Positions 12,596 to 56,310 of a stretch of 64,000 nt of DNA are shown one piece after another. Under the pieces are notes generated by a model. It searched no databases. It was not told where the DNA came from and saw only the letters and a list, made by a program, of their open reading frames with translations. This DNA is from Anaerolineaceae bacterium UBA1415. Lineage in GTDB: Bacteria; Chloroflexota; Anaerolineae; Anaerolineales; Anaerolineaceae. Made by a program: the position numbers and the translations under genes. Each line of letters starts with the position of its first letter. Positions within the stretch are counted from its first letter, which is position 1. The DNA lies in assembly GCA_002305635.1 (NCBI GenBank), contig DBPR01000029.1:53281-117280 (forward strand), written 5' to 3'.

Positions 12596-13126
12596 TTACG
12601 GTTCCACAATAACATCAATATAAGCTGCCACCTGTCTGCCAACATTACCATTGTTTTCCATGACCTGGGTTTTAAACAAAACTCGGACTTCAGCTGGCAA
12701 TTGGATTTCTTCCAGGTCGGGAACGCCAGCCGGAACCAACATCACAGAATCGCCAAACTCATTTGCTTCAATTGTTCTATCAGAAATGGTTGAAGTCACG
12801 AGGTTCTTTAACTCTCTCCAACCCTGATTAGTTTCATCAAAATAAAAAAAGTAGATGTATTCCCCGTCTATGTATAAAGGAGTTTTATCGTTCGGAATCT
12901 CTACTATTACATCAACCAGGTAATTTTTCTTAAAAAGAGTATTGTCACCCTGCATTAAAGAGATTTTTATACTTTCATTCACATCATCTTTTTCAGATAG
13001 TTTTGCCAGTTCATAAAAACCACTATCTTTTTCTGAGAGAGTTTTACTACATGCTGTAAGCGAAAAACAAAGCAAAAGGATTGTTGCAAGGTTGATTTTA
13101 ATATGATTACAGAAATTATTTTTCAT
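12596..13126 (-). CDS. Hypothetical lipoprotein (AT-rich gene)
   Basis: Signal peptide with lipobox LTAC. I recognise no other motif. Confidence 0.5.
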   Translation of the reverse strand: MKNNFCNHIKINLATILLLCFSLTACSKTLSEKDSGFYELAKLSEKDDVNESIKISLMQGDNTLFKKNYLVDVIVEIPNDKTPLYIDGEYIYFFYFDETNQGWRELKNLVTSTISDRTIEANEFGDSVMLVPAGVPDLEEIQLPAEVRVLFKTQVMENNGNVGRQVAAYIDVIVEP

Positions 13127-46327: not shown

Positions 46328-46380
46328 ACCAACCGCCACCACCCTCTTCGCGCGTAAGTTGGATAGGACGGCCGTGGTAT

Positions 46381-46492
46381 AAACCCTTCTCACCCGCCCG
46401 TGGTACTTTCCCAGTATGGAAGGTCGGGTTGCGCTGCCTGCCCTTGGCTTATTTGCCAAGGGTCAACCCGACAAAATCTTAAGCCTTCTCAC
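46381..46492. repeat. Cluster of REP-like units
   Basis: AAACCCTTCTCACCCGCCCGTGGTACTTTCCCAG, then the AGGTCGGGTTG...CAACCCGAC long hairpin (46422-46472) with inner CCCTTGGC-ttattt-GCCAAGGG, then TAAGCCTTCTCACCTGCCCGG. Confidence 0.55.
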
Positions 46493-46840
46493 CTGCCCGG
46501 TAGGGTCGGTTTTTAAGCCTTCGCCCATGGGGAGAAGGTGCCCGCAGGGTGGATGAGGGGTAATCGAGAACCTGCCCGAAGGCCGGGTACTACCTAAAGC
46601 CTTCCCACCTGCCCGTGGTGCTTTCCCAGGGGGCGGGAGAAGGCCTGCCCTCTTTTAGAGAGGGTGCTCGGCAGGTCGGTCTTTAAGCCTTCGCCCATGG
46701 GGAGAAGGTGCCCGCAGGGCGGATGAGGGGTAATCGAGAACCTGCCCGAAGGCCGGGTACTACTAAAAGCCTTCCCACCTGCCCGTGGTGCTTTCCCAGG
46801 GGACTGGGAGAAGGCCTGCCCTCTTTGTAGAGAGGGTGCC
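46493..46840. repeat. Tandem direct repeat, two copies of ~170 bp
   Basis: TAAGCCTTCGCCCATGGGGAGAAGGTGCCCGCAGGG starts at 46514 and again at 46684. AAAGCCTTCCCACCTGCCCGTGGTGCTTTCCCAGG occurs at 46596 and 46766. Only a few substitutions and one 1-nt indel separate the copies. Confidence 0.8.
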
Positions 46841-47053
46841 CGAAGGCCGGACTGTTTACCCGATGTTACTAGGGTGAGGGGTGTTTCTTGCGCCCTGGAT
46901 TTCCAGGATGAAGGGAAACGAAACCATGTAAGATCAACCTTACACTCGCTTGTCAACCATGGCATTCTGCCCCTGACCCCACCCAATTTTTCATAAAAAC
47001 ATCCCCCATCCAAGAGTATAATTACCCACAACGCAATCCCCGTCAGGAGGACC

Positions 47054-50000
47054 ATGACCGCGCCGGAAATCATTCACAACCTCGTCACCAGCTTTCGCGA
47101 CCTGCGCGAACAATACACCTCTGTCCACTACAAAGAAACCCAACTGCGCAACGAATTTCTCAACCCCTTCTTCATCGCCCTCGGTTGGGATGTCTACAAC
47201 GAGCGCAACGTCGCCCTCCAATACCGCGACGTCATCCACGAAGACTCCCTCGAGATCGAAGGCAAAACCCGCGCGCCTGACTACGCCTTTTGCGTCGGCA
47301 GCTCCCGAAAATTCTTCGTCGAGGCAAAAAAGCCTTCTGCCCGCGTCAAAACCAACGGCGAAGCCGCCTATCAACTCCGCCGCTACGCCTGGAACACCAA
47401 ACTTCCCCTCTCCATCCTGACCGATTTCGAGCATTTCGCCGTCTACGACTGCCGCACTCGTCCCGACCCCAAAGACAGTGCCGCCGTCGGGCGCGTCAAG
47501 CTCTATAATTTTGAAGAATACCTCAGCCATTGGGACGAGATCGCCAGCATCTTCTCCCGGGAAGCGGTCTGGAAAGGGAAATTAGACGATTTCGCCGACG
47601 GCACCAAAGGCAAACGCTCCACCACCGAGGTGGACGCTGAATTCCTCAAGGATATCGAAGCCTGGCGCGATCTGCTGGCGCGCAATATCGCCCTGCGCAA
47701 CTTCCGTTCCAGCGAAGAGCTCGCCAACCTACCCCGTGCCGAACGCCAGCTCAACTATGCCGTACAGGCGACCATCGACCGCATCCTCTTTTTGCGCATC
47801 TGCGAAGACCGCGAAATTGAGCCGCCCGATCAGCTCCTTCAAAATGCGCAGCAGCCTGATGTCTACGCCAACCTGCTCACCCTCTTTAAGCACGCCGATC
47901 AGAAATATAATTCCGGGCTCTTCCATTTTTCGGAAGAAAAAAGCCAGACCAGCGCGCCCGATACCTTTACCCCCACCTTGCAGATTGACGATAAGGTACT
48001 GCGTCAGATCATCGAAAGCCTTTATGGCCCCAGCTCCTATATCTTCAAAGAGATCCCGGTCGAGATCCTTGGGCAAATATACGAGCAATTCCTGGGCAAG
48101 GTCATCCGCCTGACGCCCAAAGGCATCGCCAAGGTCGAAGAAAAGCCCGAAGTCCGCAAAGCCGGCGGCGTCTACTACACCCCCAGCTACATCGTCGATT
48201 ACATCGTCCACAACACCCTCAGCCCTCTCCTTAATCCAAACCAGCCTTCCCAAGATGGTAAAAAAGTGGGCTTCGAAAACCAACCACCATCTAGGACGAG
48301 AGCTGTGGAAGCGCCAAACTCTACCCCTTCCAGGGAAAGGGAATTAAAGGGGTTGGGTCTTGAAAAACATCCTTCGAAAACTACGCTGAAGAGTGGGTCT
48401 TTCGATCTGTCATCGCGAGACCCGCAGGGTCGTGGCGATCTGCCTTTCCAATCTTCTTCAGATCAACAAAAAGTACAGGAACCAATGGGCTCAAACGACC
48501 AAACCTTGACCAGGTCGAAGCCTGCGGAATCGTCCAGCCAAACCCCCTCCAGGGAGGGGGGCAGGGGGGTGGGTCTTGAAAACAAACCGACCACACAAAC
48601 CATCTCCAGCGAAGCGACGGAAGCCGTAGGTCGGGTTGCGCTTGTCAACCCGACATCCACATCCCTAACCCCCGACCAGGCCCTCAAACTCCGTGTCGTC
48701 GATCCCGCCTGCGGCTCCGGCTCCTTCCTCCTGGGTGCCTACCAATACCTCCTCGACTGGCACCTCAACTACTACCTCACCCACGACCCCGAAAGCCACA
48801 TCCGCGGCAAAAACCCACCCATCGTCGCCACCGAAGGCGGTGAATATCGCCTCACCACCGAAGAAAAGAAGCGCATCCTCACCGCCAGCATCTACGGCGT
48901 CGATATCGACGCCCAGGCGGTCGAGGTCACCAAGCTCTCCCTCCTGCTCAAACTGCTCGAGGGCGAAACCGGTCAGCTCACCCTTGGTTTCGACCGCGTC
49001 CTGCCCGACCTCGGCAACAACATCCGCTGCGGCAACTCCCTCATCGGCTGGGACTATTTTGCCAGCCAGCTTTTGCCCGACGAAGAAGAGATCATCCGCG
49101 TCAACCCCTTCGACTGGCAGCGCTCCTTCCCCGAAGTCTTCGCCCAGGGCGGCTTCGACGCCGTCATCGGCAACCCGCCCTACGTCCGCCAGGAAGATCT
49201 CGGCGCCGACAAACGCTATTACCAGAGCCTCTACGAGGTCTACACAGGCACTGCCGACCTCTACAGCTATTTCATCGAGCGCGGCATCAAACTGCTGGCA
49301 CCCAACGGCAATTTTAGCTACATCGTCGCCAACAAGTGGATGCGCGCCAATTACGGTCGTCCCCTGCGTGAATGGCTCAAAAAGCAGTGTATCGATGAGA
49401 TCACTGACTTTGGCGACCTGCGTGTTTTCACCAGCGCCACCACCTACCCATGCATCCTGCGCGTCAGCAACCGCGAACCGCACAACCGACCCTGGGTGAC
49501 CACCGTCAAAACGCTTGACTTCCCCTCACTGCAGGAATACGTTGATCAAAACGGCTCAGTTGCCGACCAAACCCGCTTTGAGGATGGCGGTTGGTCGCTG
49601 GCAGGCATCGAGACCCAAAGACTGATGGAAAAGATCCGCCAAAACTCCATCCCACTGGGTGAATATGTTAAGGGCAAAATTTATCGGGGAGCAGTTACTG
49701 GTCTAAATGAAGTCTTCATCATTGACCAGTCCACCCGAGATCATCTCATTGCTGAAGATCCTAAAAGCGCTGAACTGATCAAGTCGTGTTTGTTGGGGAA
49801 AGACATTAAACGCTACGGCATTGATTACCAAAATCTTTACATGATATTCACCAGACGCGGCACCAATATTAAAGATTATCCTGCGATTCACGACTACTTA
49901 CTCAAATTTAAGGATAAATTAATGCCACGACCAAAAAAATGGGCTGGCAAAGATTGGAAAGGGCGGAAACCTGGTCCCTACCAATGGTTTGAAATTCAAG

Positions 50001-50446
50001 ATTCAATTGCCTATTACGAAGAATTTGAAAAGCCAAAAATTATTTGGGGTAATCTGGCACAGAAACCTAAATTTACCATGGATACAGATGGATACTATAT
50101 CAATGCTCCAGGGGTTATTATTCCAGTCGAAGATTACTATCTTCTGGGAATAATGAATTCTTCATTGTTTTACACATTTATTAGTGAAGTGGCAGCTGGT
50201 AGACGAGGAGGATTCTTCGAGTACAAACCCATCTATGTTTCCCAAATGCCGATTCATATCATAGATTGGGATAATATTGCTGAAGTTGAGATGGTAAACC
50301 AACTTCGTCAACTGGTAATTAGAAGGCTTGAATTAGGAAAACGCAATGCTCAAACCCCAGGGCAAGTAATGATGTTAGAAAACGAAATTGAAATTATCGA
50401 GACACATATAGACTCTGTCGTTATGACACTTTACAATCTCAAATAA
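47054..50446 (+). CDS. Type IIG restriction-modification fusion: PD-(D/E)xK nuclease, gamma-class N6-adenine methyltransferase and TaqI_C/Eco57I-like recognition region
   Basis: APDYAF...FFVEAKKP (D...ExK), YYTPSYIVDYIV, DPACGSGSFLL (motif I), GNPPYV (motif IV), YRGAVTGLNEVFII and a C-terminal ...IDSVVMTLYNL. The RBS CAGGAGG lies 4 nt upstream of the ATG. Confidence 0.85.
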   Translation: MTAPEIIHNLVTSFRDLREQYTSVHYKETQLRNEFLNPFFIALGWDVYNERNVALQYRDVIHEDSLEIEGKTRAPDYAFCVGSSRKFFVEAKKPSARVKTNGEAAYQLRRYAWNTKLPLSILTDFEHFAVYDCRTRPDPKDSAAVGRVKLYNFEEYLSHWDEIASIFSREAVWKGKLDDFADGTKGKRSTTEVDAEFLKDIEAWRDLLARNIALRNFRSSEELANLPRAERQLNYAVQATIDRILFLRICEDREIEPPDQLLQNAQQPDVYANLLTLFKHADQKYNSGLFHFSEEKSQTSAPDTFTPTLQIDDKVLRQIIESLYGPSSYIFKEIPVEILGQIYEQFLGKVIRLTPKGIAKVEEKPEVRKAGGVYYTPSYIVDYIVHNTLSPLLNPNQPSQDGKKVGFENQPPSRTRAVEAPNSTPSRERELKGLGLEKHPSKTTLKSGSFDLSSRDPQGRGDLPFQSSSDQQKVQEPMGSNDQTLTRSKPAESSSQTPSREGGRGVGLENKPTTQTISSEATEAVGRVALVNPTSTSLTPDQALKLRVVDPACGSGSFLLGAYQYLLDWHLNYYLTHDPESHIRGKNPPIVATEGGEYRLTTEEKKRILTASIYGVDIDAQAVEVTKLSLLLKLLEGETGQLTLGFDRVLPDLGNNIRCGNSLIGWDYFASQLLPDEEEIIRVNPFDWQRSFPEVFAQGGFDAVIGNPPYVRQEDLGADKRYYQSLYEVYTGTADLYSYFIERGIKLLAPNGNFSYIVANKWMRANYGRPLREWLKKQCIDEITDFGDLRVFTSATTYPCILRVSNREPHNRPWVTTVKTLDFPSLQEYVDQNGSVADQTRFEDGGWSLAGIETQRLMEKIRQNSIPLGEYVKGKIYRGAVTGLNEVFIIDQSTRDHLIAEDPKSAELIKSCLLGKDIKRYGIDYQNLYMIFTRRGTNIKDYPAIHDYLLKFKDKLMPRPKKWAGKDWKGRKPGPYQWFEIQDSIAYYEEFEKPKIIWGNLAQKPKFTMDTDGYYINAPGVIIPVEDYYLLGIMNSSLFYTFISEVAAGRRGGFFEYKPIYVSQMPIHIIDWDNIAEVEMVNQLRQLVIRRLELGKRNAQTPGQVMMLENEIEIIETHIDSVVMTLYNLK
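48240..48660 (+). repeat. In-frame block of intergenic-type repeat elements inside the RM gene
   Basis: GTAGGTCGGGTTGcgcttgtCAACCCGAC at 48626-48654. Two ~45-nt units lie at 48324-48369 and 48543-48586, each ending GGGTCTTGAAAA. More TGGGYCTT-type copies lie at ~48265 and ~48393. The block translates as a low-complexity S/T/P/G/Q-rich stretch. Confidence 0.7.
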
Positions 50447-50464
50447 GACATACTTAGGAGTACG

Positions 50465-53400
50465 ATGGTTCAAATTGGAAAAATCGATTTCCCAGAAACG
50501 TTATTAAAAAGCCTCGAGAATAATGAACTCGTCGTTTTTGCTGGTGCAGGTGTTTCAATGGGACCTCCTTCAAATCTACCGAATTTTAATGGATTGGCTC
50601 AGGATATAGGTAAGAGTGTAGGTCATGAATTTAATGAAAAGAAAGAAGCTGCAGACTTGTTTTTGGGAAGGCTTGAAGATCAGGGAATAGATGTAAAAGA
50701 ATTTGCAAAGAAAGAATTAAATAAAGCGATGAGCTTTAACCCATTACATTCAGCCATTATTTCCCTTTATGATAAGTCACAAAATCTAAGGATTGTCACG
50801 ACAAATTTTGATGATCTTTTCGAACAAGCATTTCTTTCAAAACCTGAAAAAAAAGTAAACACATATTGTTCTCCAGTATTGCCTTTAGGGCATGATTTTG
50901 AAGGTCTTGTGCATCTCCATGGTAGTGTAACAAATACTAAGAGCATGATTCTAACCGATCGAGATTTCGGTAAGGCTTATCTAACAGATGGTTGGGCATT
51001 GCGATTCTTGATACCCTTATTTCAAAAATTTTCAGTTTTATTCATTGGCTATAGCTATAACGATGTTGTTATGAAGTATCTGGCACGAGCGTTACCTCCT
51101 GAATTGACAGAAAAAAGATATATCTTAAGTACTGAAAAAAGAGACGACCATTGGCGGCGATTAAGGCTGACCCCAATTTACTATTCAGGAAGAAACAAAC
51201 ATTCTGCACTAATCTCTTCATTATCAGAGATGGCGGATAGGCAGAATAGAACTTTACTAGATTGGAAATCTAGAATTACTGATTTATGCTCAAAGGGTTT
51301 GCCGAAAGAAAAAGCAAAACTTGATGAACTTGAACAGATATTTCTAGATACTAATAGGACAAAGTTGTTTATTCAGATAGCCAGAGGATTTAGTTGGGTT
51401 CCTTGGTTAATTGAAAAAAAATTTCTTGATCCATTCACTAAACCGAATCTTGATGGATGGGCTAGATGGTTTGCTTCAATATTCATTGAGAACCAGGAAA
51501 AAATAATCTCTTTATTTATTAATAGACAGCATATGGATAGACTGTTTTGGTCATCATTAATTTATGAGGTTAATGACCTTGATTTAGAAAAATGTCGACA
51601 GATTGATTTTTCAAGGATGATTTCTTTTTTGCTCAGAACAAAGCCGATTCCCTCGAATTTGTCCCTTTATTACATAATCGCACAAAAATGCTATGAATTT
51701 GGTGATTTTGAATCATTGTTAGATGTTTTTGAAACATATGTCAGTGAATACGAAGTCTTAATCACAAAATCACTTTGGAGGGAAAGTGATACATTTGAAG
51801 TGGTAGCTGATGAACACGGAAATGAAGTGGTATATATGTTTTATCAATTTATTGAGCCTAATTTATCTTTTGCACCAGAGAGATTGTTGAATCTAGCAAT
51901 GCGAACCTTGAGAAAAATGAACAGGCTCGAAATGATATGGTCTGATTCAATTTCACAACTCAACTCTTCAAGTATGAGATTTCACAGTCTCCTCAAAGAT
52001 GTTGATAGAAATGAATATGGCACAGATTTCATACAAGTTGCTATCATTTCTGCGAGAAAAGCTCTTCTAGAAATAATGTCAAGAGATTCCGTTTTATGGC
52101 GGTTTTATACTGGTCAAGCTATACGAGACAAATGTAATCTAATTGCAAGGATTGGTTTAGATGCTTTAATTAACTCAGACTTAGTCGATAGTTCTTATAT
52201 TATTTCCGAGTTTCTTAAGATTCAACATCCTTTAGCTTGGGATATGCGACCAGAAGTATACGAATTACTTTTCACAAATTTTAAAAGTAGTAATGATGAA
52301 TTAAAAGTTTTGGTTTTAGAAAAAATAAATAAATCGATTAATGAAATGGAATGGAATTCTGATTTTAAAACAAAGCAATTAGTTAGCTGGTGTAATTTCT
52401 TCTATGAATTAGATCCCAACAACAAAATTCTAAGGATGAAAAAAGATTTGCTACAAGCAAAGTATCCTGAGGTTAAACCAAAAATAATTGGAAAAAGAAT
52501 AATTGAAGTAAGTGGAATTAAAGACCCAGACCCTTCATTTTGGTCACCAGATGAATTGATAAATATGACGACAGATGCAGAATTCGAAAAGATTCTAAAT
52601 AAAATAAAAACATTCCAGTTGTCGACAGACATTGGCTCCTCCTATATTGCCATACAACGAGCAGTTGAGAAGGATCAGGGTTGGGCGTTTTTATTTGCTG
52701 ATTATCTCGTCAAAATAGAATGTTTTAGTAATACTGTTTGGAGCCGTATATTTTTGGGGCTTCAAAAAGTTCACTTGAACGAACAAGAGAAAGAATTCAT
52801 AATAAATCTCAGTAAAATCAAGGAGATCATTCATTCTTTTCAATATTATTATTTAGAATTGCTAGAAAATCAACTAAATACTTCAGAAGACCTGTTCAAC
52901 AATACTGATATTAATGAAGTAATTACTCTCGTTGAAAAAATGTTATCTTCAAAAAATCTTGAAGTCATGGTTAGTGAAAAGTCCAGTATTCTAATGAAAT
53001 CTTGTAACAGTAATATTGGAATGATTTCATTAATTCTCATCAAATGTGTTGATATTCTGAATAAAAGAAATATCTGCAGAGGGTGCCTTGATAAAGGTTT
53101 GGAGATAATATCCGAATTAGCTAATTCATCAGAATTTGGGGATTTTGCGAGACCAATGATCTTCACCCAATTTACCTTTTTTATGACTTCTTTTCAAAAT
53201 TTTGCCATCCGAGAACTTGTCCCATTCCTGACAAACAGAAAAAATGATTATTATATTCAAGCTTGGAATGGTTTCCTAAATGGGGATAATAATCCAGCAA
53301 GCTACATCGAACATTTTAAACCCATAATGATTAAAGCTGCTCAAAGAGTTGAGCACTTGGAAGAAAGCGACCGACAATTATTCTTACAACTGTGTGCTCA

Positions 53401-53905
53401 TGTTGCAGTAAATGAGAGAAATCCAATAACCTCAATTGTTTTTCCTGTTTTTAAAGTGGTACCGTCAAAATACTTGCACTATTTTTCTAGAACCATTGGG
53501 CAAGTAATAAATACCGCAGATTCTGATTTAATCGATTCTTTATGGAATAATTTTCTTTCTGACTTTCTCGAAAAGAGAATCAATAATGCCCCTGTGGAAA
53601 CTACAGACAAAGAAACCAAAGAGATCTCAAAGTGGCTTATTAAATTAGGGAAATACTATCCTGAAGCGGTAGATTGTTTCATAAAATTCAAACCTGCAGA
53701 TTTGAGTAAATCCAACCTAATTTATAGATTAGAAAATTCTGAAATAACTGATTTATACCCATTGGCGACAAAAAAACTATTGTCATACTTAAATAAGTGT
53801 AAAATTGATTCTTGGAATAAGCAATACATACAAAAAGTTGTGGAACGTCTGAAAGTCCATCTGGATAAAACCGATATAGAAATGTTAGAAATTGAAATGA
53901 CATAA
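50465..53905 (+). CDS. SIR2-family (SIR2_2-like) NAD-utilising domain fused to a ~900-aa uncharacterised helical region; DSR-like defence candidate
   Basis: VVFAGAGVSMGPPSNLP, VTTNFDDLFE, LVHLHGS and LFIGYSYNDVVM in the first ~230 aa. I recognise no motif in the rest. The RBS TAGGAG precedes the start, which is 18 nt after the RM stop. The gene is strongly AT-rich. Confidence 0.8.
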   Translation: MVQIGKIDFPETLLKSLENNELVVFAGAGVSMGPPSNLPNFNGLAQDIGKSVGHEFNEKKEAADLFLGRLEDQGIDVKEFAKKELNKAMSFNPLHSAIISLYDKSQNLRIVTTNFDDLFEQAFLSKPEKKVNTYCSPVLPLGHDFEGLVHLHGSVTNTKSMILTDRDFGKAYLTDGWALRFLIPLFQKFSVLFIGYSYNDVVMKYLARALPPELTEKRYILSTEKRDDHWRRLRLTPIYYSGRNKHSALISSLSEMADRQNRTLLDWKSRITDLCSKGLPKEKAKLDELEQIFLDTNRTKLFIQIARGFSWVPWLIEKKFLDPFTKPNLDGWARWFASIFIENQEKIISLFINRQHMDRLFWSSLIYEVNDLDLEKCRQIDFSRMISFLLRTKPIPSNLSLYYIIAQKCYEFGDFESLLDVFETYVSEYEVLITKSLWRESDTFEVVADEHGNEVVYMFYQFIEPNLSFAPERLLNLAMRTLRKMNRLEMIWSDSISQLNSSSMRFHSLLKDVDRNEYGTDFIQVAIISARKALLEIMSRDSVLWRFYTGQAIRDKCNLIARIGLDALINSDLVDSSYIISEFLKIQHPLAWDMRPEVYELLFTNFKSSNDELKVLVLEKINKSINEMEWNSDFKTKQLVSWCNFFYELDPNNKILRMKKDLLQAKYPEVKPKIIGKRIIEVSGIKDPDPSFWSPDELINMTTDAEFEKILNKIKTFQLSTDIGSSYIAIQRAVEKDQGWAFLFADYLVKIECFSNTVWSRIFLGLQKVHLNEQEKEFIINLSKIKEIIHSFQYYYLELLENQLNTSEDLFNNTDINEVITLVEKMLSSKNLEVMVSEKSSILMKSCNSNIGMISLILIKCVDILNKRNICRGCLDKGLEIISELANSSEFGDFARPMIFTQFTFFMTSFQNFAIRELVPFLTNRKNDYYIQAWNGFLNGDNNPASYIEHFKPIMIKAAQRVEHLEESDRQLFLQLCAHVAVNERNPITSIVFPVFKVVPSKYLHYFSRTIGQVINTADSDLIDSLWNNFLSDFLEKRINNAPVETTDKETKEISKWLIKLGKYYPEAVDCFIKFKPADLSKSNLIYRLENSEITDLYPLATKKLLSYLNKCKIDSWNKQYIQKVVERLKVHLDKTDIEMLEIEMT

Positions 53906-54026
53906 CTCATCGAGTAGGTAAGGTTCCGCTCCCGTTCTTCGTTCTTATGCTGAGTGCTATGTAAAAAAACAAAACCTAGATGTTATACCACAAGCAGGTT
54001 GTGCGATCAGGGGTACGCAATTTTGA

Positions 54027-54050
54027 CCGCACAACCGCACAACCGCACAA
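54027..54050. repeat. Three tandem CCGCACAA octamers
   Basis: CCGCACAA is repeated three times. The last copy plus CCT is the reverse complement of AGGTTGTGCG at 53996-54005. Confidence 0.6.
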
Positions 54051-54146
54051 CCTCACCCTTGCACAATCCAAGGGCAGGCAACCTCAGCTTTTACCCTCAT
54101 ACCTATACAAAATACAGGGTAAAAGGGTAAAACCTCATCGCCTCCG

Positions 54147-54155
54147 TGCTATAAT
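54147..54155 (+). promoter_or_regulatory. Extended -10 promoter candidate for the ChlI-like gene
   Basis: TGCTATAAT lies 24 nt upstream of the ATG, with AAGGAAG as RBS. Confidence 0.4.
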
Positions 54156-54178
54156 TTGCCTTTGCAAAGGAAGCGACT

Positions 54179-55309
54179 ATGAATCATAAAGTAATTTTTC
54201 CCTTCACCGCCATTGTTGGGCAGGAGCGCATGATGCGCGCCCTCATCCTCAACGCGGTTGACCCGCGCATCGGCGGCGTCCTCATCCGCGGCGAACGCGG
54301 CACTGCCAAATCCACCGCCGCCCGCGCCCTGGCAGCCCTCCTGCCCGCCATCGAGGTCGTCACAGACTGCCGTTTCAACTGCGACCCCGCCAAACCGACC
54401 ACCTGGTGTACCGAATGTCAGGAGCGTTTTGTCGGCGGCGAAGACCCTTTGCCCCACGAAAGCAAAACCACCCCCTTCGTCAACCTGCCCGTTTCCGCCA
54501 CCGAAGACCGTGTCGTCGGCACCCTCGATATCGAACGCGCCATCCAGAAAGGCGAGCGCCATTTTGAGCCCGGCGTGCTGGCAAGCGCCAACCGCGGCTT
54601 GCTCTACATCGACGAGGTCAACCTGCTCGACGATCACGTCGTCGATATCCTGCTCGACTCCGCCGCTATGGGCACCAACGTCGTCGAACGCGAAGGCATC
54701 TCCTTCAGCCACCCCGCCCGCTTCATCCTCGTTGGCACGATGAACCCCGAAGAGGGCGACCTGCGCCCGCAGCTGCTCGACCGATTCGCCTTTTCCGTTG
54801 AAATTCACGGCATCCTGGATAAAGCCCAGCGCGTCGAGATCATGCGCCGCAACATCGCCTTTGAAAGCGACCCCGAAGCCTTCCGCCAGGCATTTTTGCC
54901 CCAGGAGCTTGAGCTTTCCGACAGAATCGCCGCCGCCCAAAAACTGGTCGAAGACGTTTCCTACACCCAGCGCGACCTGCTGATCATCGCCGAGCTGACC
55001 TCCTCGATGGATGTCGATGGGCACCGCTCCGACCTGGTCATCCTCAAAGCCGCCCGCGCCCAGGCAGCCTTTGAGGGGCGCGACCGCATCACCCCGCACG
55101 ATATCGCCATGGCTGCCGAACTGGCGCTGCCCCACCGCGTCAAGGCTGGTCCCTTCCGCAAGAGCGAGAATGGCATCGAGCACCTCAACGCCAAACTGGC
55201 AGACCTGAAGATGCAGACCACGCTCTCTCCTTCTGAGGACGACCGCGACCAGGAAGTTGAGCAAAACCAGGACGACGATAAAAAAAAAGTGACCCCGTCC
55301 CTGACTTAG
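54179..55309 (+). CDS. ChlI/BchI-family AAA+ ATPase (chelatase I-subunit-like)
   Basis: FPFTAIVGQERMMRALILNAVDPRIGGVLIRGERGTAKST and LLYIDEVNLLDDH (Walker B). It has a Cys-rich insert CRFNCDP...CTEC and an acidic C-terminal end. Confidence 0.85.
   Translation: MNHKVIFPFTAIVGQERMMRALILNAVDPRIGGVLIRGERGTAKSTAARALAALLPAIEVVTDCRFNCDPAKPTTWCTECQERFVGGEDPLPHESKTTPFVNLPVSATEDRVVGTLDIERAIQKGERHFEPGVLASANRGLLYIDEVNLLDDHVVDILLDSAAMGTNVVEREGISFSHPARFILVGTMNPEEGDLRPQLLDRFAFSVEIHGILDKAQRVEIMRRNIAFESDPEAFRQAFLPQELELSDRIAAAQKLVEDVSYTQRDLLIIAELTSSMDVDGHRSDLVILKAARAQAAFEGRDRITPHDIAMAAELALPHRVKAGPFRKSENGIEHLNAKLADLKMQTTLSPSEDDRDQEVEQNQDDDKKKVTPSLT
55280..55288 (+). other. A9 homopolymer linking the ChlI-like frame to the VWA frame
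   Basis: GAT AAA AAA AAA GTG in the ATPase frame. The -1 frame has TAA at 55279-55281, then stays open from 55282 straight into the VWA ORF. Confidence 0.9.
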
Positions 55310-55347
55310 ACAACAAAGACAACGACTTTGATCCTGAGATCCCGATC

Positions 55348-56310
55348 GTGGGCGAGTCGCAGCAGGACGTATTCGTCCAGCTCAACCCGAACTGGTGGGA
55401 CGGCGGCAAGGTGGTCAAGCCAGGCGAGACCTTTGAGCCGCGCCAGCTCGACACCCCGCTCGACGAAATGGTCCGCAAACAGGGCGGCAGACGTTCCCAG
55501 ACGATGTCCAGGACCAAACGCGGGCGCTACATCATGGCGCGCCCAGCCCCGCGCGACCGCAGCGACGTGGCTTTTGACGCCACACTGCGCGCCGCCGCGC
55601 CCTATCAGCGCCGCCGCAAAGCCCTGCGCGAGGAGCGCAAGGTCGCTTTTGCCATCCGTCCCGACGATTTTCAGAAAAAAGTGCGCGTGCGCAAGACCGC
55701 CAACCTGATCCTCTTTTTGGTTGATGGCTCCTGGTCGATGGCGGTCGCCGAGCGCATGCAGGCGACCAAGGCGGCGATCCTGTCGCTGCTGACCGACGCC
55801 TACCAGCGTCGCGATCGGGTCGGCCTGGTCGTCTTCCAGAAAGACCGCGCCACCCTGGTCCTGGCGCCGACCAATTCGGTCCTGCTGGCGCAGCGCGCGC
55901 TGGCGAGCATCCCGGTCGGCGGCAAGACGCCTCTCTCGGCTGGGCTGGAAATGGCATGGGAGGTCATCGCGCGTGAGAAGATCCTGCACCCGGATGTGCA
56001 GCCCCTGCTGATCGTCTTGACCGACGGCGCCGGCAACGTACCCCTCGTGCCCGGCAGACCTGTGGCGGAGGAGATCAAAGAGCTGGCGGGCATGTTCGCC
56101 AACGAGAAGATCCACAGCGTTGTGATCAACATGGAGCAGAAGGTCTTCGACAGTGGTCTGGCGCAGGGTCTGGCGGAAGATATGGGCGCGGTTTGTTATA
56201 CCGTTGATGATCTGAGGGGCGACACGCTTTACAAGACTGTCCAGAAAGAGATCCTCGCCCCCTCCGTCCCAACCTACCGCGAATTGGGCTACAGCTCGGC
56301 CGGGTTGTAG
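55348..56310 (+). CDS. von Willebrand factor A domain protein (ChlD C-terminal-like)
   Basis: MIDAS motif LVDGSWSM, ...VLTDGAGN. The GTG start has no obvious SD, and the frame is open 22 codons further upstream to 55282. Confidence 0.8.
   Translation: MGESQQDVFVQLNPNWWDGGKVVKPGETFEPRQLDTPLDEMVRKQGGRRSQTMSRTKRGRYIMARPAPRDRSDVAFDATLRAAAPYQRRRKALREERKVAFAIRPDDFQKKVRVRKTANLILFLVDGSWSMAVAERMQATKAAILSLLTDAYQRRDRVGLVVFQKDRATLVLAPTNSVLLAQRALASIPVGGKTPLSAGLEMAWEVIAREKILHPDVQPLLIVLTDGAGNVPLVPGRPVAEEIKELAGMFANEKIHSVVINMEQKVFDSGLAQGLAEDMGAVCYTVDDLRGDTLYKTVQKEILAPSVPTYRELGYSSAGL

Follow-up and report, generated by a model that had tools for sequence, protein, structure and literature searches.

Two adjoining AT-rich modules probably underlie a compositional step inside a Type IIG restriction-modification gene of an uncultured Anaerolineaceae bacterium

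We analyzed a 64,000-nucleotide stretch of the genome of Anaerolineaceae bacterium UBA1415 (GCA_002305635.1, contig DBPR01000029.1; hereafter, the window), in which a predicted Type IIG restriction-modification (RM) gene is followed by a gene for a DSR1-like defence sirtuin, the SIR2 gene. Base composition changes abruptly within the RM gene, opening an AT-rich tract that extends past the end of the SIR2 gene (49652-53962). We consider it likely that this tract is not a single insert but two adjoining AT-rich modules, in a modular RM mosaic located at a defence hotspot. Two observations suggest such a juxtaposition: the target recognition domain (TRD) with which the tract begins is AT-rich throughout the enzyme family, and the C-terminal tail of the enzyme belongs with the downstream cargo, whose left edge is a junction inside the RM gene (J2, at about 50257).

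A compositional step at the recognition domain boundary

The source assembly is a metagenome-assembled draft of an uncultured Anaerolineaceae bacterium (1.65 Mb in 31 contigs, 81% complete, GC 0.503). Between 49550 and 49850, sliding GC content decreases from 0.55-0.62 to 0.36-0.41; it stays at 0.28-0.38 as far as about 53900 and is up again to 0.57-0.66 by 54050-54200. When third positions of the RM open reading frame (ORF) are considered, the maximum-likelihood change-point is codon 866, at nucleotide 49652 of the plus strand, where third-position GC content (GC3) drops from 0.716 to 0.355 (log-likelihood ratio 55). A fit of two change-points to all bases places them at 49661 and 54201, delimiting segments with GC contents of 0.57, 0.35 and 0.635. 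Low GC3 continues from 49652 through the SIR2 gene (50465-53905). These profiles bear out a preliminary description of the window, which had placed a sharp break near 49650 and had followed AT-rich sequence across an 18-nt spacer (50447-50464, as described) and the whole SIR2 gene. It had also ended the AT-rich block at about 53990; the right end of the foreign block, as judged from relatives, lies at about 53962.

The step does not result from amino-acid content: GC3 values predicted from amino acids and host codon usage are nearly equal on either side (0.583 for residues 546-866, 0.557 for residues 867-1068), against observed values of 0.779 and 0.337, respectively. It marks the boundary between methyltransferase (MTase) and recognition domain, since the TaqI-like recognition domain opens with a GxxTGxNxxF block in an alignment with CamA, and residue 866 immediately precedes this block. 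The step is also real and no assembly artefact. It is crossed by a single unbroken ORF with canonical domain order, and two other assemblies (L011, GCA_040364295.1, from NCBI; L012, ERZ2647986, from ENA) as well as nine Logan contigs from other samples cross it at 98-100% identity.

Long ORFs of the genome have a median GC3 of 0.60, with 1st and 95th percentiles of 0.33 and 0.69. Against this distribution, the segment 49621-54120 is the joint-largest AT-rich island of the 1.65-Mb assembly, with a GC3 within the lowest 1% or so of long ORFs. The GC-rich part of the RM gene, which the preliminary description had taken as resident and host-like, does not qualify as such: its GC3 of 0.72-0.78 exceeds the genomic 95th percentile, and this part is itself a mosaic. 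Two neighboring genes downstream, encoding a ChlI-like and a VWA protein, also lie above this percentile (0.77 and 0.82).

Mosaic structure of the RM gene and its recurrent junctions

The RM gene (47054-50446, plus strand) encodes a protein of 1130 amino acids that we classify as a Type IIG fusion from Pfam and PADLOC matches, motifs and structure matches. Pfam domains are found in the order HSDR_N (residues 61-137, a PD-(D/E)xK-type nuclease), Eco57I (612-792) and TaqI_C (912-1067), and the protein matches the PADLOC model REase_MTase_IIG (3.8e-202). Both the gamma-class N6-adenine MTase motifs I (VVDPACGSGSF) and IV (GNPPYV) and the PD-(D/E)xK nuclease motif APDYAF...VEAKK can be read in the alignment, and the nearest solved structures, CamA, M.TaqI and BrxX, match across the catalytic region. 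The predicted product is thus an Eco57I/MmeI-like enzyme with nuclease, MTase and recognition domain in one polypeptide.

We distinguish the following parts, all on the plus strand. Module A (47054-48253, residues 1-400) comprises the nuclease and a helical N-terminal part; it has a GC3 of 0.72 and a DNA identity of 90%, and its nearest relative is the allele L018 introduced below. Between the nuclease and MTase parts lies an indel-variable, low-complexity linker (48240-48660), rich in P, S, T and Q and containing repeated SSQTPSRE units. Its length varies among alleles (proteins of 1130, 1087 and 1035 amino acids) and identity collapses there in all homologues, which makes it the putative crossover zone between modules A and C. 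The first half of module C is the MTase domain (48657-49651, GC3 0.78), whose DNA is 98-100% identical to L011 and L012, and the second half is the TRD (49652-50257, residues 867-1068, GC3 0.34), which the closest alleles have inherited jointly with the MTase domain. A C-terminal helix, or tail (50258-50446, residues 1069-1130, GC3 0.26), goes with the cargo. The spacer that follows contains an AGGAG sequence 7 nt before the SIR2 ATG.

Four alleles of one chromosomal locus, all upstream of the same ChlI-like/VWA pair, were compared: those of the window, of L018 (genome G078), of L011 and of L012. L018 is the syntenic orthologue, with 91-92% DNA identity in upstream genes and flanks; its upstream UDP-glucose dehydrogenase, epimerase and 112-amino-acid ORF have 97-98% protein identity to those of the window. 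The RM genes of L018 and the window match as far as nucleotide 49189 (93-100% identity over residues 1-420 and 541-660). From 49189 to 53962, no similarity is left: L018 has another RM C-terminal half followed by a candidate defence system, PDC-M46A/B. The block replaced with respect to this orthologue hence comprises the C-terminal 418 amino acids of the RM protein together with the downstream effector, which argues for specificity module and effector being exchanged in linkage at this locus.

The other two alleles give a different picture. While module A is 93-100% identical to L018 at the amino-acid level, it is only 88-89% identical to L011 and L012. In L011, DNA identity is 90% over the N-terminal part and 98% over 48657-50257, straight across the compositional step, and the TRD shows 95-100% DNA identity to that of the window, with 11 differences. 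Similarity then breaks off after ...CCGATTCAT (about 50257, residue ~1068, 190 nt before the RM stop) and drops to 48-54%. The L011 tail is homologous to the window tail but only about 45% identical, and the cargo behind it is different: a SAVED effector gene starting 7 nt past the RM stop, an oligonucleotide cyclase gene (CD-NTase, for cGAS/DncV-like nucleotidyltransferase) of a cyclic oligonucleotide-based antiphage signaling system (CBASS), a gene for a 519-amino-acid protein and a DUF2188 gene. L012 has the same TRD and tail as the window, followed by a SIR2 gene, in a different upstream neighborhood; its TRD is 100% DNA identical over 49750-50257 (98% in the 49600-49749 bin) and its protein is identical over residues 867-1130. 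In L013, a JGI metagenome contig with another gene context, the step recurs at an unchanged position; its TRD has 70-90% amino-acid identity to that of the window, DNA identity is only 75%, and similarity ends at 50259.

Separate phylogenies of RM segments, involving up to 81 homologues, agree with these comparisons. For residues 1-390, the window is sister to L018 at a distance of 0.02. For residues 546-866 and 867-1068, it is found with L011 and L012 (0.00-0.01), then with L013. In the tail tree, it groups solely with L012, the next relative being at a distance above 1.1. The N- and C-terminal parts of the RM protein thus lack common nearest relatives, and this identifies the gene, from its segment trees, as a mosaic that likely arose by recombination. 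Phylogenetic breaks occur at the linker (~48250-48650), at a junction termed J1 (~49189) and at J2 (~50257), not at 49652.

Both junctions recur when pairwise similarity ends are compared among twelve Anaerolineaceae-type alleles. J1 (49184-49189, plus strand, about residue 712) lies just after the NPPY block. Similarity of the window to L018, L015 and L016 ends at 49182-49189, amino-acid identity collapses at about residue 720 in L018, L015, L016 and L019, and ends of the J1 type, 1124-1377 nt before the RM stop, are seen in seven allele pairs. J2 (50257-50258, plus strand, about residue 1068) is the left edge of the cargo cassette with respect to the CBASS-bearing allele, and is observed between the window and L011, between the window and L013 (50259), and between L011 and L012 (189-207 nt before the stop). 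Three further loci (L021, L022 and L026) lose similarity at residues ~900-930, the start of the TRD core.

One of these, L022 (JAKIZI010000065.1), is a 6-kb contig with a GC content of 0.40 from a metagenome-assembled genome labelled Bacteroidetes. Its RM C-terminal part, with a GC3 of 0.74, is 84% identical to the MTase segment of the window and is followed by reverse transcriptase and DUF3800 genes. Either this DNA was recently transferred between phyla or the contig was mis-binned.

Sequences upstream of the RM gene vary as well (46333-46996 in the window versus 4391-9943 in L012 and 7951-9316 in L011): L012 has about 5 kb of ferredoxin/NADH-oxidoreductase genes that are absent from the window, and L011 has AT-rich GDSL-lipase and acetyltransferase genes. 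The Logan contigs begin at or beyond the 3' end of the linker (L012 11278-11973, window-equivalent up to 49155). An apparent free-standing TRD+SIR2 cassette in such contigs, a 273-amino-acid TaqI_C ORF behind a minus-strand ORF, turned out to be an artefact of gene calling, and we rejected it: these contigs, which show 100% colinearity with L012, simply begin inside the RM gene, and their minus-strand ORF is the one lying antisense to the GC-rich MTase region (compare 48665-49483).

AT-rich recognition domains across the family

We surveyed GC3 along RM genes from 80 homologous loci drawn from named genomes. Hosts range from Anaerolineae, Thermodesulfobacteriota and other 'delta' lineages, Planctomycetota (Brocadia, Scalindua), Nitrospirota, Bacteroidota and Spirochaetota to the archaeal Methanothrix, Methanoregulaceae, Methanosarcina and ANME (anaerobic methanotrophic archaea). 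GC3 is lower in residues 867-1130 than in residues 550-866 in 80 of 82 homologues, with a mean difference of 0.17 that exceeds 0.15 in 43 of them. The mean profile of 76 genes, expressed relative to the gene mean, is at +0.05 to +0.14 as far as residue 720, falls thereafter to between -0.13 and -0.25 over residues 871-1050, and is back at +0.03 to +0.05 in residues 1081-1130. Low GC3 of the TRD is therefore a family-wide property in this Type IIG family. As such a TRD is the norm, the step seen in the window requires no special event.

The TRD also departs from the rest of the gene in its relation to the host. N-terminal GC3 follows MTase GC3 closely (slope 0.95, r 0.94), whereas the TRD core follows it loosely (slope 0.52, r 0.61); likewise, correlation with flank GC is 0.43 for TRD-core GC3 versus 0.83 for the MTase part. 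The drop in the window is large for the family: at 0.49, it lies about two standard deviations over the family mean (0.28 +/- 0.11) and is exceeded in only 2 of 79 homologues. Furthermore, the window tail lacks the recovery seen elsewhere in the family (GC3 0.26-0.35), as expected if this tail belongs to an AT-rich cargo cassette delimited by J2. We found no description of low-GC TRDs, or of a family-wide compositional signature of TRDs, in the literature searched, a limited search that does not by itself prove novelty.

The SIR2 gene and its history

The SIR2 gene (50465-53905, plus strand) encodes 1146 amino acids, with an N-terminal SIR2 domain and a large C-terminal region, as characterized with Pfam, PADLOC and NCBIfam. 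The protein matches Pfam SIR2_2 (4.9e-21) and PADLOC Dsr1 (7.5e-54), but Dsr1 models cover residues 8-277 only. Because the NCBIfam Dsr1 model NF041818 yields 215 bits (residues 8-261), short of its 1400-bit cut-off and hence of an equivalog score, we use the label DSR1-like rather than DSR1. The L012 copy, 72% identical, is the closest relative and the sole close one. All other matches are 25-28% identical, covering 97-100% of the length (E ~1e-118), and have the SIR2_2+DUF4020 architecture typical of DSR1, although the SIR2 protein of the window gives no match to Pfam PF13212 (DUF4020) at E<=0.01. We did not find the gene among the other 70 species representatives of the genus.

DSR1 is known as a single-gene system that lowers NAD+ (nicotinamide adenine dinucleotide) upon infection (Garb et al., 10.1101/2021.12.14.472415). 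In an alignment of 15 sequences, residues G27, G29, S31, T112, T113, N114, D116, H150, H152 and G153 are invariant, and the NAD-binding GAGVS motif, the TTN114xD motif and H150/H152 are all intact in the window protein. The invariance of the NAD-binding and catalytic motifs makes NADase activity plausible.

Comparison with L012 reveals two unequal parts. The SIR2 domain has 87-99% DNA identity, and synonymous divergence (dS) is 0.03-0.08 in the first 120 codons. Over the C-terminal two-thirds (51450-53800, plus strand, codons ~330-1110), DNA identity is 67-79%, and dS rises to 0.6-2.1 over codons 361-1140. This part is an allele other than that of L012, and an internal recombination boundary lies near codons 300-360. 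Positive selection behind the C-terminal divergence is ruled out, as the ratio of nonsynonymous to synonymous divergence (dN/dS) is below 1 throughout and dS is saturated; for the same reasons, we attribute the difference to allele replacement. The presumed sensor part of the protein would thus have been swapped apart from the NADase domain. In addition, TRD and SIR2 C-terminal part must have different histories, since the TRD is 100% identical to that of L012 while dS in the SIR2 C-terminal part reaches 0.6-2.1.

A scan for promoters and terminators gave nothing above background and detected no terminator-like site between the RM and SIR2 genes, hence the two are probably co-transcribed. We read them as co-located but mechanistically independent. 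A guard relation of SIR2 to the RM enzyme, as for PrrC and EcoprrI, is possible by analogy but finds no support here. Nor did a conserved RM-DSR1 pairing emerge: two distant DSR1-like genes that we sampled belong to defence islands but do not follow a gene of this RM family.

The cargo slot and the surrounding hotspot

To characterize what lies behind the RM gene in general, we considered 66 homologous loci with at least 1.2 kb of downstream sequence, in 63 of which a downstream ORF was called. In 33 of these 63, a same-strand ORF starts within 130 nt of the RM stop, often overlapping it by 4 nt. These coupled ORFs are usually AT-richer than the RM core and their 33 products form 32 unrelated groups, with many known defence genes among them. 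Annotated examples are CBASS cyclases, a SAVED effector, a Pycsar cyclase, a PD-T4-6 kinase, PD-T7-5, PDC-S05, PDC-M46A/B, a deoxyribosyltransferase/DUF4062 protein ahead of an AAA_15/21 ATPase and a UvrD helicase, a reverse transcriptase with DUF3800, a type IV methyl-directed restriction enzyme, a GmrSD-like Orf5/HEC-06 protein and an LmuB-like ATPase. PADLOC gave no match for about half of the coupled genes tested. Given that the slot otherwise holds known defence genes, these are candidates for new ones. The first gene after the RM stop is without PADLOC match in L023, L031, L052, L053, L062, L064, L069, L076, L082 and L094; the 519-amino-acid protein of L011 (15899-17458) has neither a PADLOC nor a Pfam match.

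At the locus of the window, the same flanks enclose different contents in related genomes: a DSR1-like gene in the window and in L012, CBASS in L011, PDC-M46 in G078, PDC-S50 in G077 and Gabija in G073. The last of these is an AT-rich, complete system (L107 8928-12021; GajA 3.5e-163, GajB 8.7e-116) directly upstream of the ChlI-like gene. Since the species G073 lacks the RM gene, and G077 carries PDC-S50 without it as well, the site qualifies as a hotspot by itself. In G058 and G059, the site holds AT-rich lipoprotein-like genes, and in at least 12 other species its GC is host-like and an RM gene is missing. By its gene content, the site is a defence hotspot, with variable cargo between conserved core genes. 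We saw no integrase or mobile-element hallmarks at the locus.

The right border of the hotspot is formed by the ChlI-like AAA+ ATPase and VWA protein genes (54179-56310, plus strand; identified with Pfam and NCBIfam). The pair has 96% DNA identity in L011, L012 and L018 and is present in 62 of 71 genus genomes, and thus behaves as conserved host genes rather than as defence cargo. In the intervening right flank (53955-54178), a four-way alignment shows the four alleles converging at about 53955-53965. A hairpin, TTGTGCG-N22-CGCACAA, is followed there by units resembling repetitive extragenic palindromic (REP) sequences, CACCCTTGC...GCAAGGGCAGGCAACC (hairpin and units together at 53990-54120), then by the conserved region upstream of the ChlI-like gene. 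The copy number of the REP-like units differs among the four alleles, and seven of the nine Logan contigs end inside the array. This hairpin and repeat region may serve as a right-hand recombination arm.

One locus retains what looks like a footprint of an inserted cassette that brought its own tail: in L023, an orphan RM-tail fragment (12759-12917), 57% identical to the tail of its own RM gene, is located 1.75 kb past the RM stop, behind two cargo genes. Using tblastn with the C-termini of 12 alleles, such fragments were found in this locus only, out of 11; since the other ten have none, clean replacement appears to be the rule.

A model of module exchange and its rivals

Under the reading that we favor, two modules with separate histories would adjoin in the window. 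The first would be the TRD (49652-50257), with a composition that varies largely independently of the host and of the remaining gene; TRDs of this family would be drawn from a horizontally circulating, AT-rich pool, with a turnover faster than amelioration. The second would be a cargo cassette (50258 to about 53962), comprising the last ~62 codons of the RM gene, the 18-nt spacer with its ribosome-binding site and the DSR1-like SIR2 gene. Such cassettes may be swapped among related Anaerolineaceae via homologous recombination, with a left crossover inside the RM coding sequence, either at J1 (~49189, after NPPY) or at J2 (~50257, the end of the TRD), and a right crossover in the conserved, repeat-rich region upstream of the core ChlI-like/VWA pair. 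An event at J1 would replace both the recognition domain and the defence gene behind it, whereas an event at J2 would change the tail and cargo and nothing else. From homology and intact motifs, the RM enzyme would be expected to methylate and cleave DNA at a site that its TRD specifies, and the SIR2 protein to deplete NAD+ upon phage sensing, as DSR1 does.

Several points weigh against this reading. Composition by itself cannot tell TRD from cargo: a second step at J2, or anywhere inside the AT block, is not significant (permutation p = 0.11), even though GC3 is 0.37 in the TRD versus 0.28 in the tail and SIR2 gene (Fisher p = 0.019). The same TRD is seen with different cargo in one allele pair only (L011 versus the window or L012), the other alleles differing in both TRD and cargo, which is also compatible with joint transfer. 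Homologous loci are related, so that counts such as 80/82 overstate independence, and the cause of the family-wide AT-richness of the TRD is itself something we infer. Finally, we found no near-identical TRD or SIR2 donor outside this Anaerolineaceae lineage, the nearest outside SIR2 being 28% identical.

An alternative close to the preliminary description, which had the 3' part of the recognition region and the SIR2 gene arriving together by recombination, is that a single event at ~49650 brought an AT-rich TRD, tail and SIR2 gene from a low-GC donor into a GC-rich RM gene already resident, the CBASS allele of L011 being a later replacement of tail and cargo. Unbroken low GC from 49652 to about 53900 with no significant internal step, the joint difference of the RM C-terminal part and effector from the syntenic orthologue, and the presence of the same TRD, tail and SIR2 arrangement in L012 all speak for it. 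We nevertheless judge it unlikely. The block that differs from the orthologue begins at 49189, in GC-rich sequence, rather than at 49652; the step is also present in L011, which has CBASS cargo, and in L013, whose DNA is 75% identical and whose context differs; AT-rich TRDs are the norm throughout the family; TRD and SIR2 C-terminal part diverge differently from L012; and no donor was found. What stands of the earlier proposal is the mosaic, and the exchange in linkage relative to L018 (49189-53962). What finds no support is 49650 as the arrival junction of TRD and SIR2 gene, given the 98% identity of L011 across the step ahead of CBASS genes, the same step in L013, the AT shift in 80 of 82 homologues and the different histories of TRD and SIR2 C-terminal part seen in the comparison with L012.

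Still more improbable, in our view, is that the low GC3 of the TRD is intrinsic, caused by selection or local mutational bias (for example, linked to expression control or recombination) with no horizontal exchange, an AT-rich SIR2 gene being next to it by coincidence. The occurrence of the bias in 80 of 82 homologues from bacteria and archaea, its limitation to the TRD core and the recovery in the tail would suit such a cause. However, TRDs are replaced, with identity collapsing at J1 or at residues ~900-930 while flanks are still 70-100% identical, and segment trees are incongruent. Moreover, TRD GC3 is only weakly tied to host flank GC (r 0.43 versus 0.83 for the MTase part), as expected of sequence that is imported and not shaped locally, and there is no drop in low-GC hosts (for example, 0.30 versus 0.34 in L048). 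A chimera joining the DNA of two organisms at ~49650 during assembly or binning, for which the sharpness of the step and the draft state of the metagenome assembly (31 contigs, 81% complete) could be invoked, is effectively refuted by the uninterrupted ORF with intact domain order that spans the step, by the presence of this junction, with 98-100% identity, in NCBI, ENA and Logan assemblies made independently from numerous samples, and by the synteny of the host flanks on either side with G078.

Relation to known systems and significance

The kinds of process involved, recognition-domain shuffling and a defence hotspot, are already known. It is established that TRDs of RM systems are replaced via recombination at conserved flanks, also in a Type IIG specificity gene (PMC3575425), and domain movement, in which specificity modules pass between alleles as well as loci and identical TRDs lie inside otherwise diverged genes, was described by Furuta & Kobayashi (PMC3575425, PMC3077401). 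Our locus resembles these cases in the apparent swapping of specificity modules by recombination at sequences flanking the TRD. It differs in that the TRD is within an RM fusion polypeptide and bears a family-wide compositional signature, and in that the exchanged unit often passes the stop codon to include an unrelated defence gene. In the C-terminal displacement of Rhs genes (Jackson et al. 2009, PMC2935791), a variable tip and the next gene are swapped behind a conserved core, at an in-gene junction. There too, a compositional change marks the tip boundary, and an orphan tail remnant was seen here once (L023). The analogy is one of mechanism and not of membership: a restriction enzyme and defence cargo are unrelated to a toxin and its immunity gene, and the accumulated orphan tips that are a hallmark of Rhs loci are lacking here (1 of 11 loci).

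Defence islands and integration hotspots with conserved flanks have been reported (Hochhauser et al. 2023, PMC10121019). Similarly, one site between conserved genes holds here DSR1-like, CBASS, PDC-M46, PDC-S50 and Gabija systems, but its left border lies inside a coding sequence, so that each swap would also alter how the RM protein ends. Effectors lying within RM loci are known from PrrC in EcoprrI (PMC12707154), with which the window shares the tight linkage of an effector gene to an RM gene. As for DSR1 (Gao et al. 2020; Garb et al.), the SIR2 protein is likewise a single protein of ~1150 amino acids with an N-terminal SIR2 domain and intact catalytic Asn and His, whereas its gene lies 18 nt behind an RM gene, a position not found for the two DSR1-like relatives sampled. 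The locus would then be new in degree, in having its left recombination arm within the RM coding sequence at two recurrent sites, in linking a specificity module with an unrelated effector in exchange, and in the compositional decoupling of the TRD across a family.

We may also hypothesize, although we hold this to be somewhat unlikely, that the RM genes of this widespread Type IIG family provide, at their 3' end, a dedicated site for docking. Cassettes carrying their own RM C-terminal helix, and often a TRD, would circulate between bacteria and archaea, and one crossover would install an effector under the transcription and translation signals of the RM gene while rewriting the end of the enzyme. 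The tail might then couple effector and RM enzyme physically or functionally, for instance as a back-up upon RM inhibition as in PrrC-EcoprrI, and the slot would be an unexploited bait for new defence genes.

The locus cautions that a compositional step need not bound the most recent insertion. AT-shifted recognition domains may provide a simple signature of rapid horizontal turnover, and the slot behind the RM gene is hypervariable (32 groups in 33 loci) and could be mined for new defence systems. These alleles offer a base-pair view of how, in uncultured anaerobes, the specificity of an RM enzyme and an unrelated immune gene may be exchangeable in one step.

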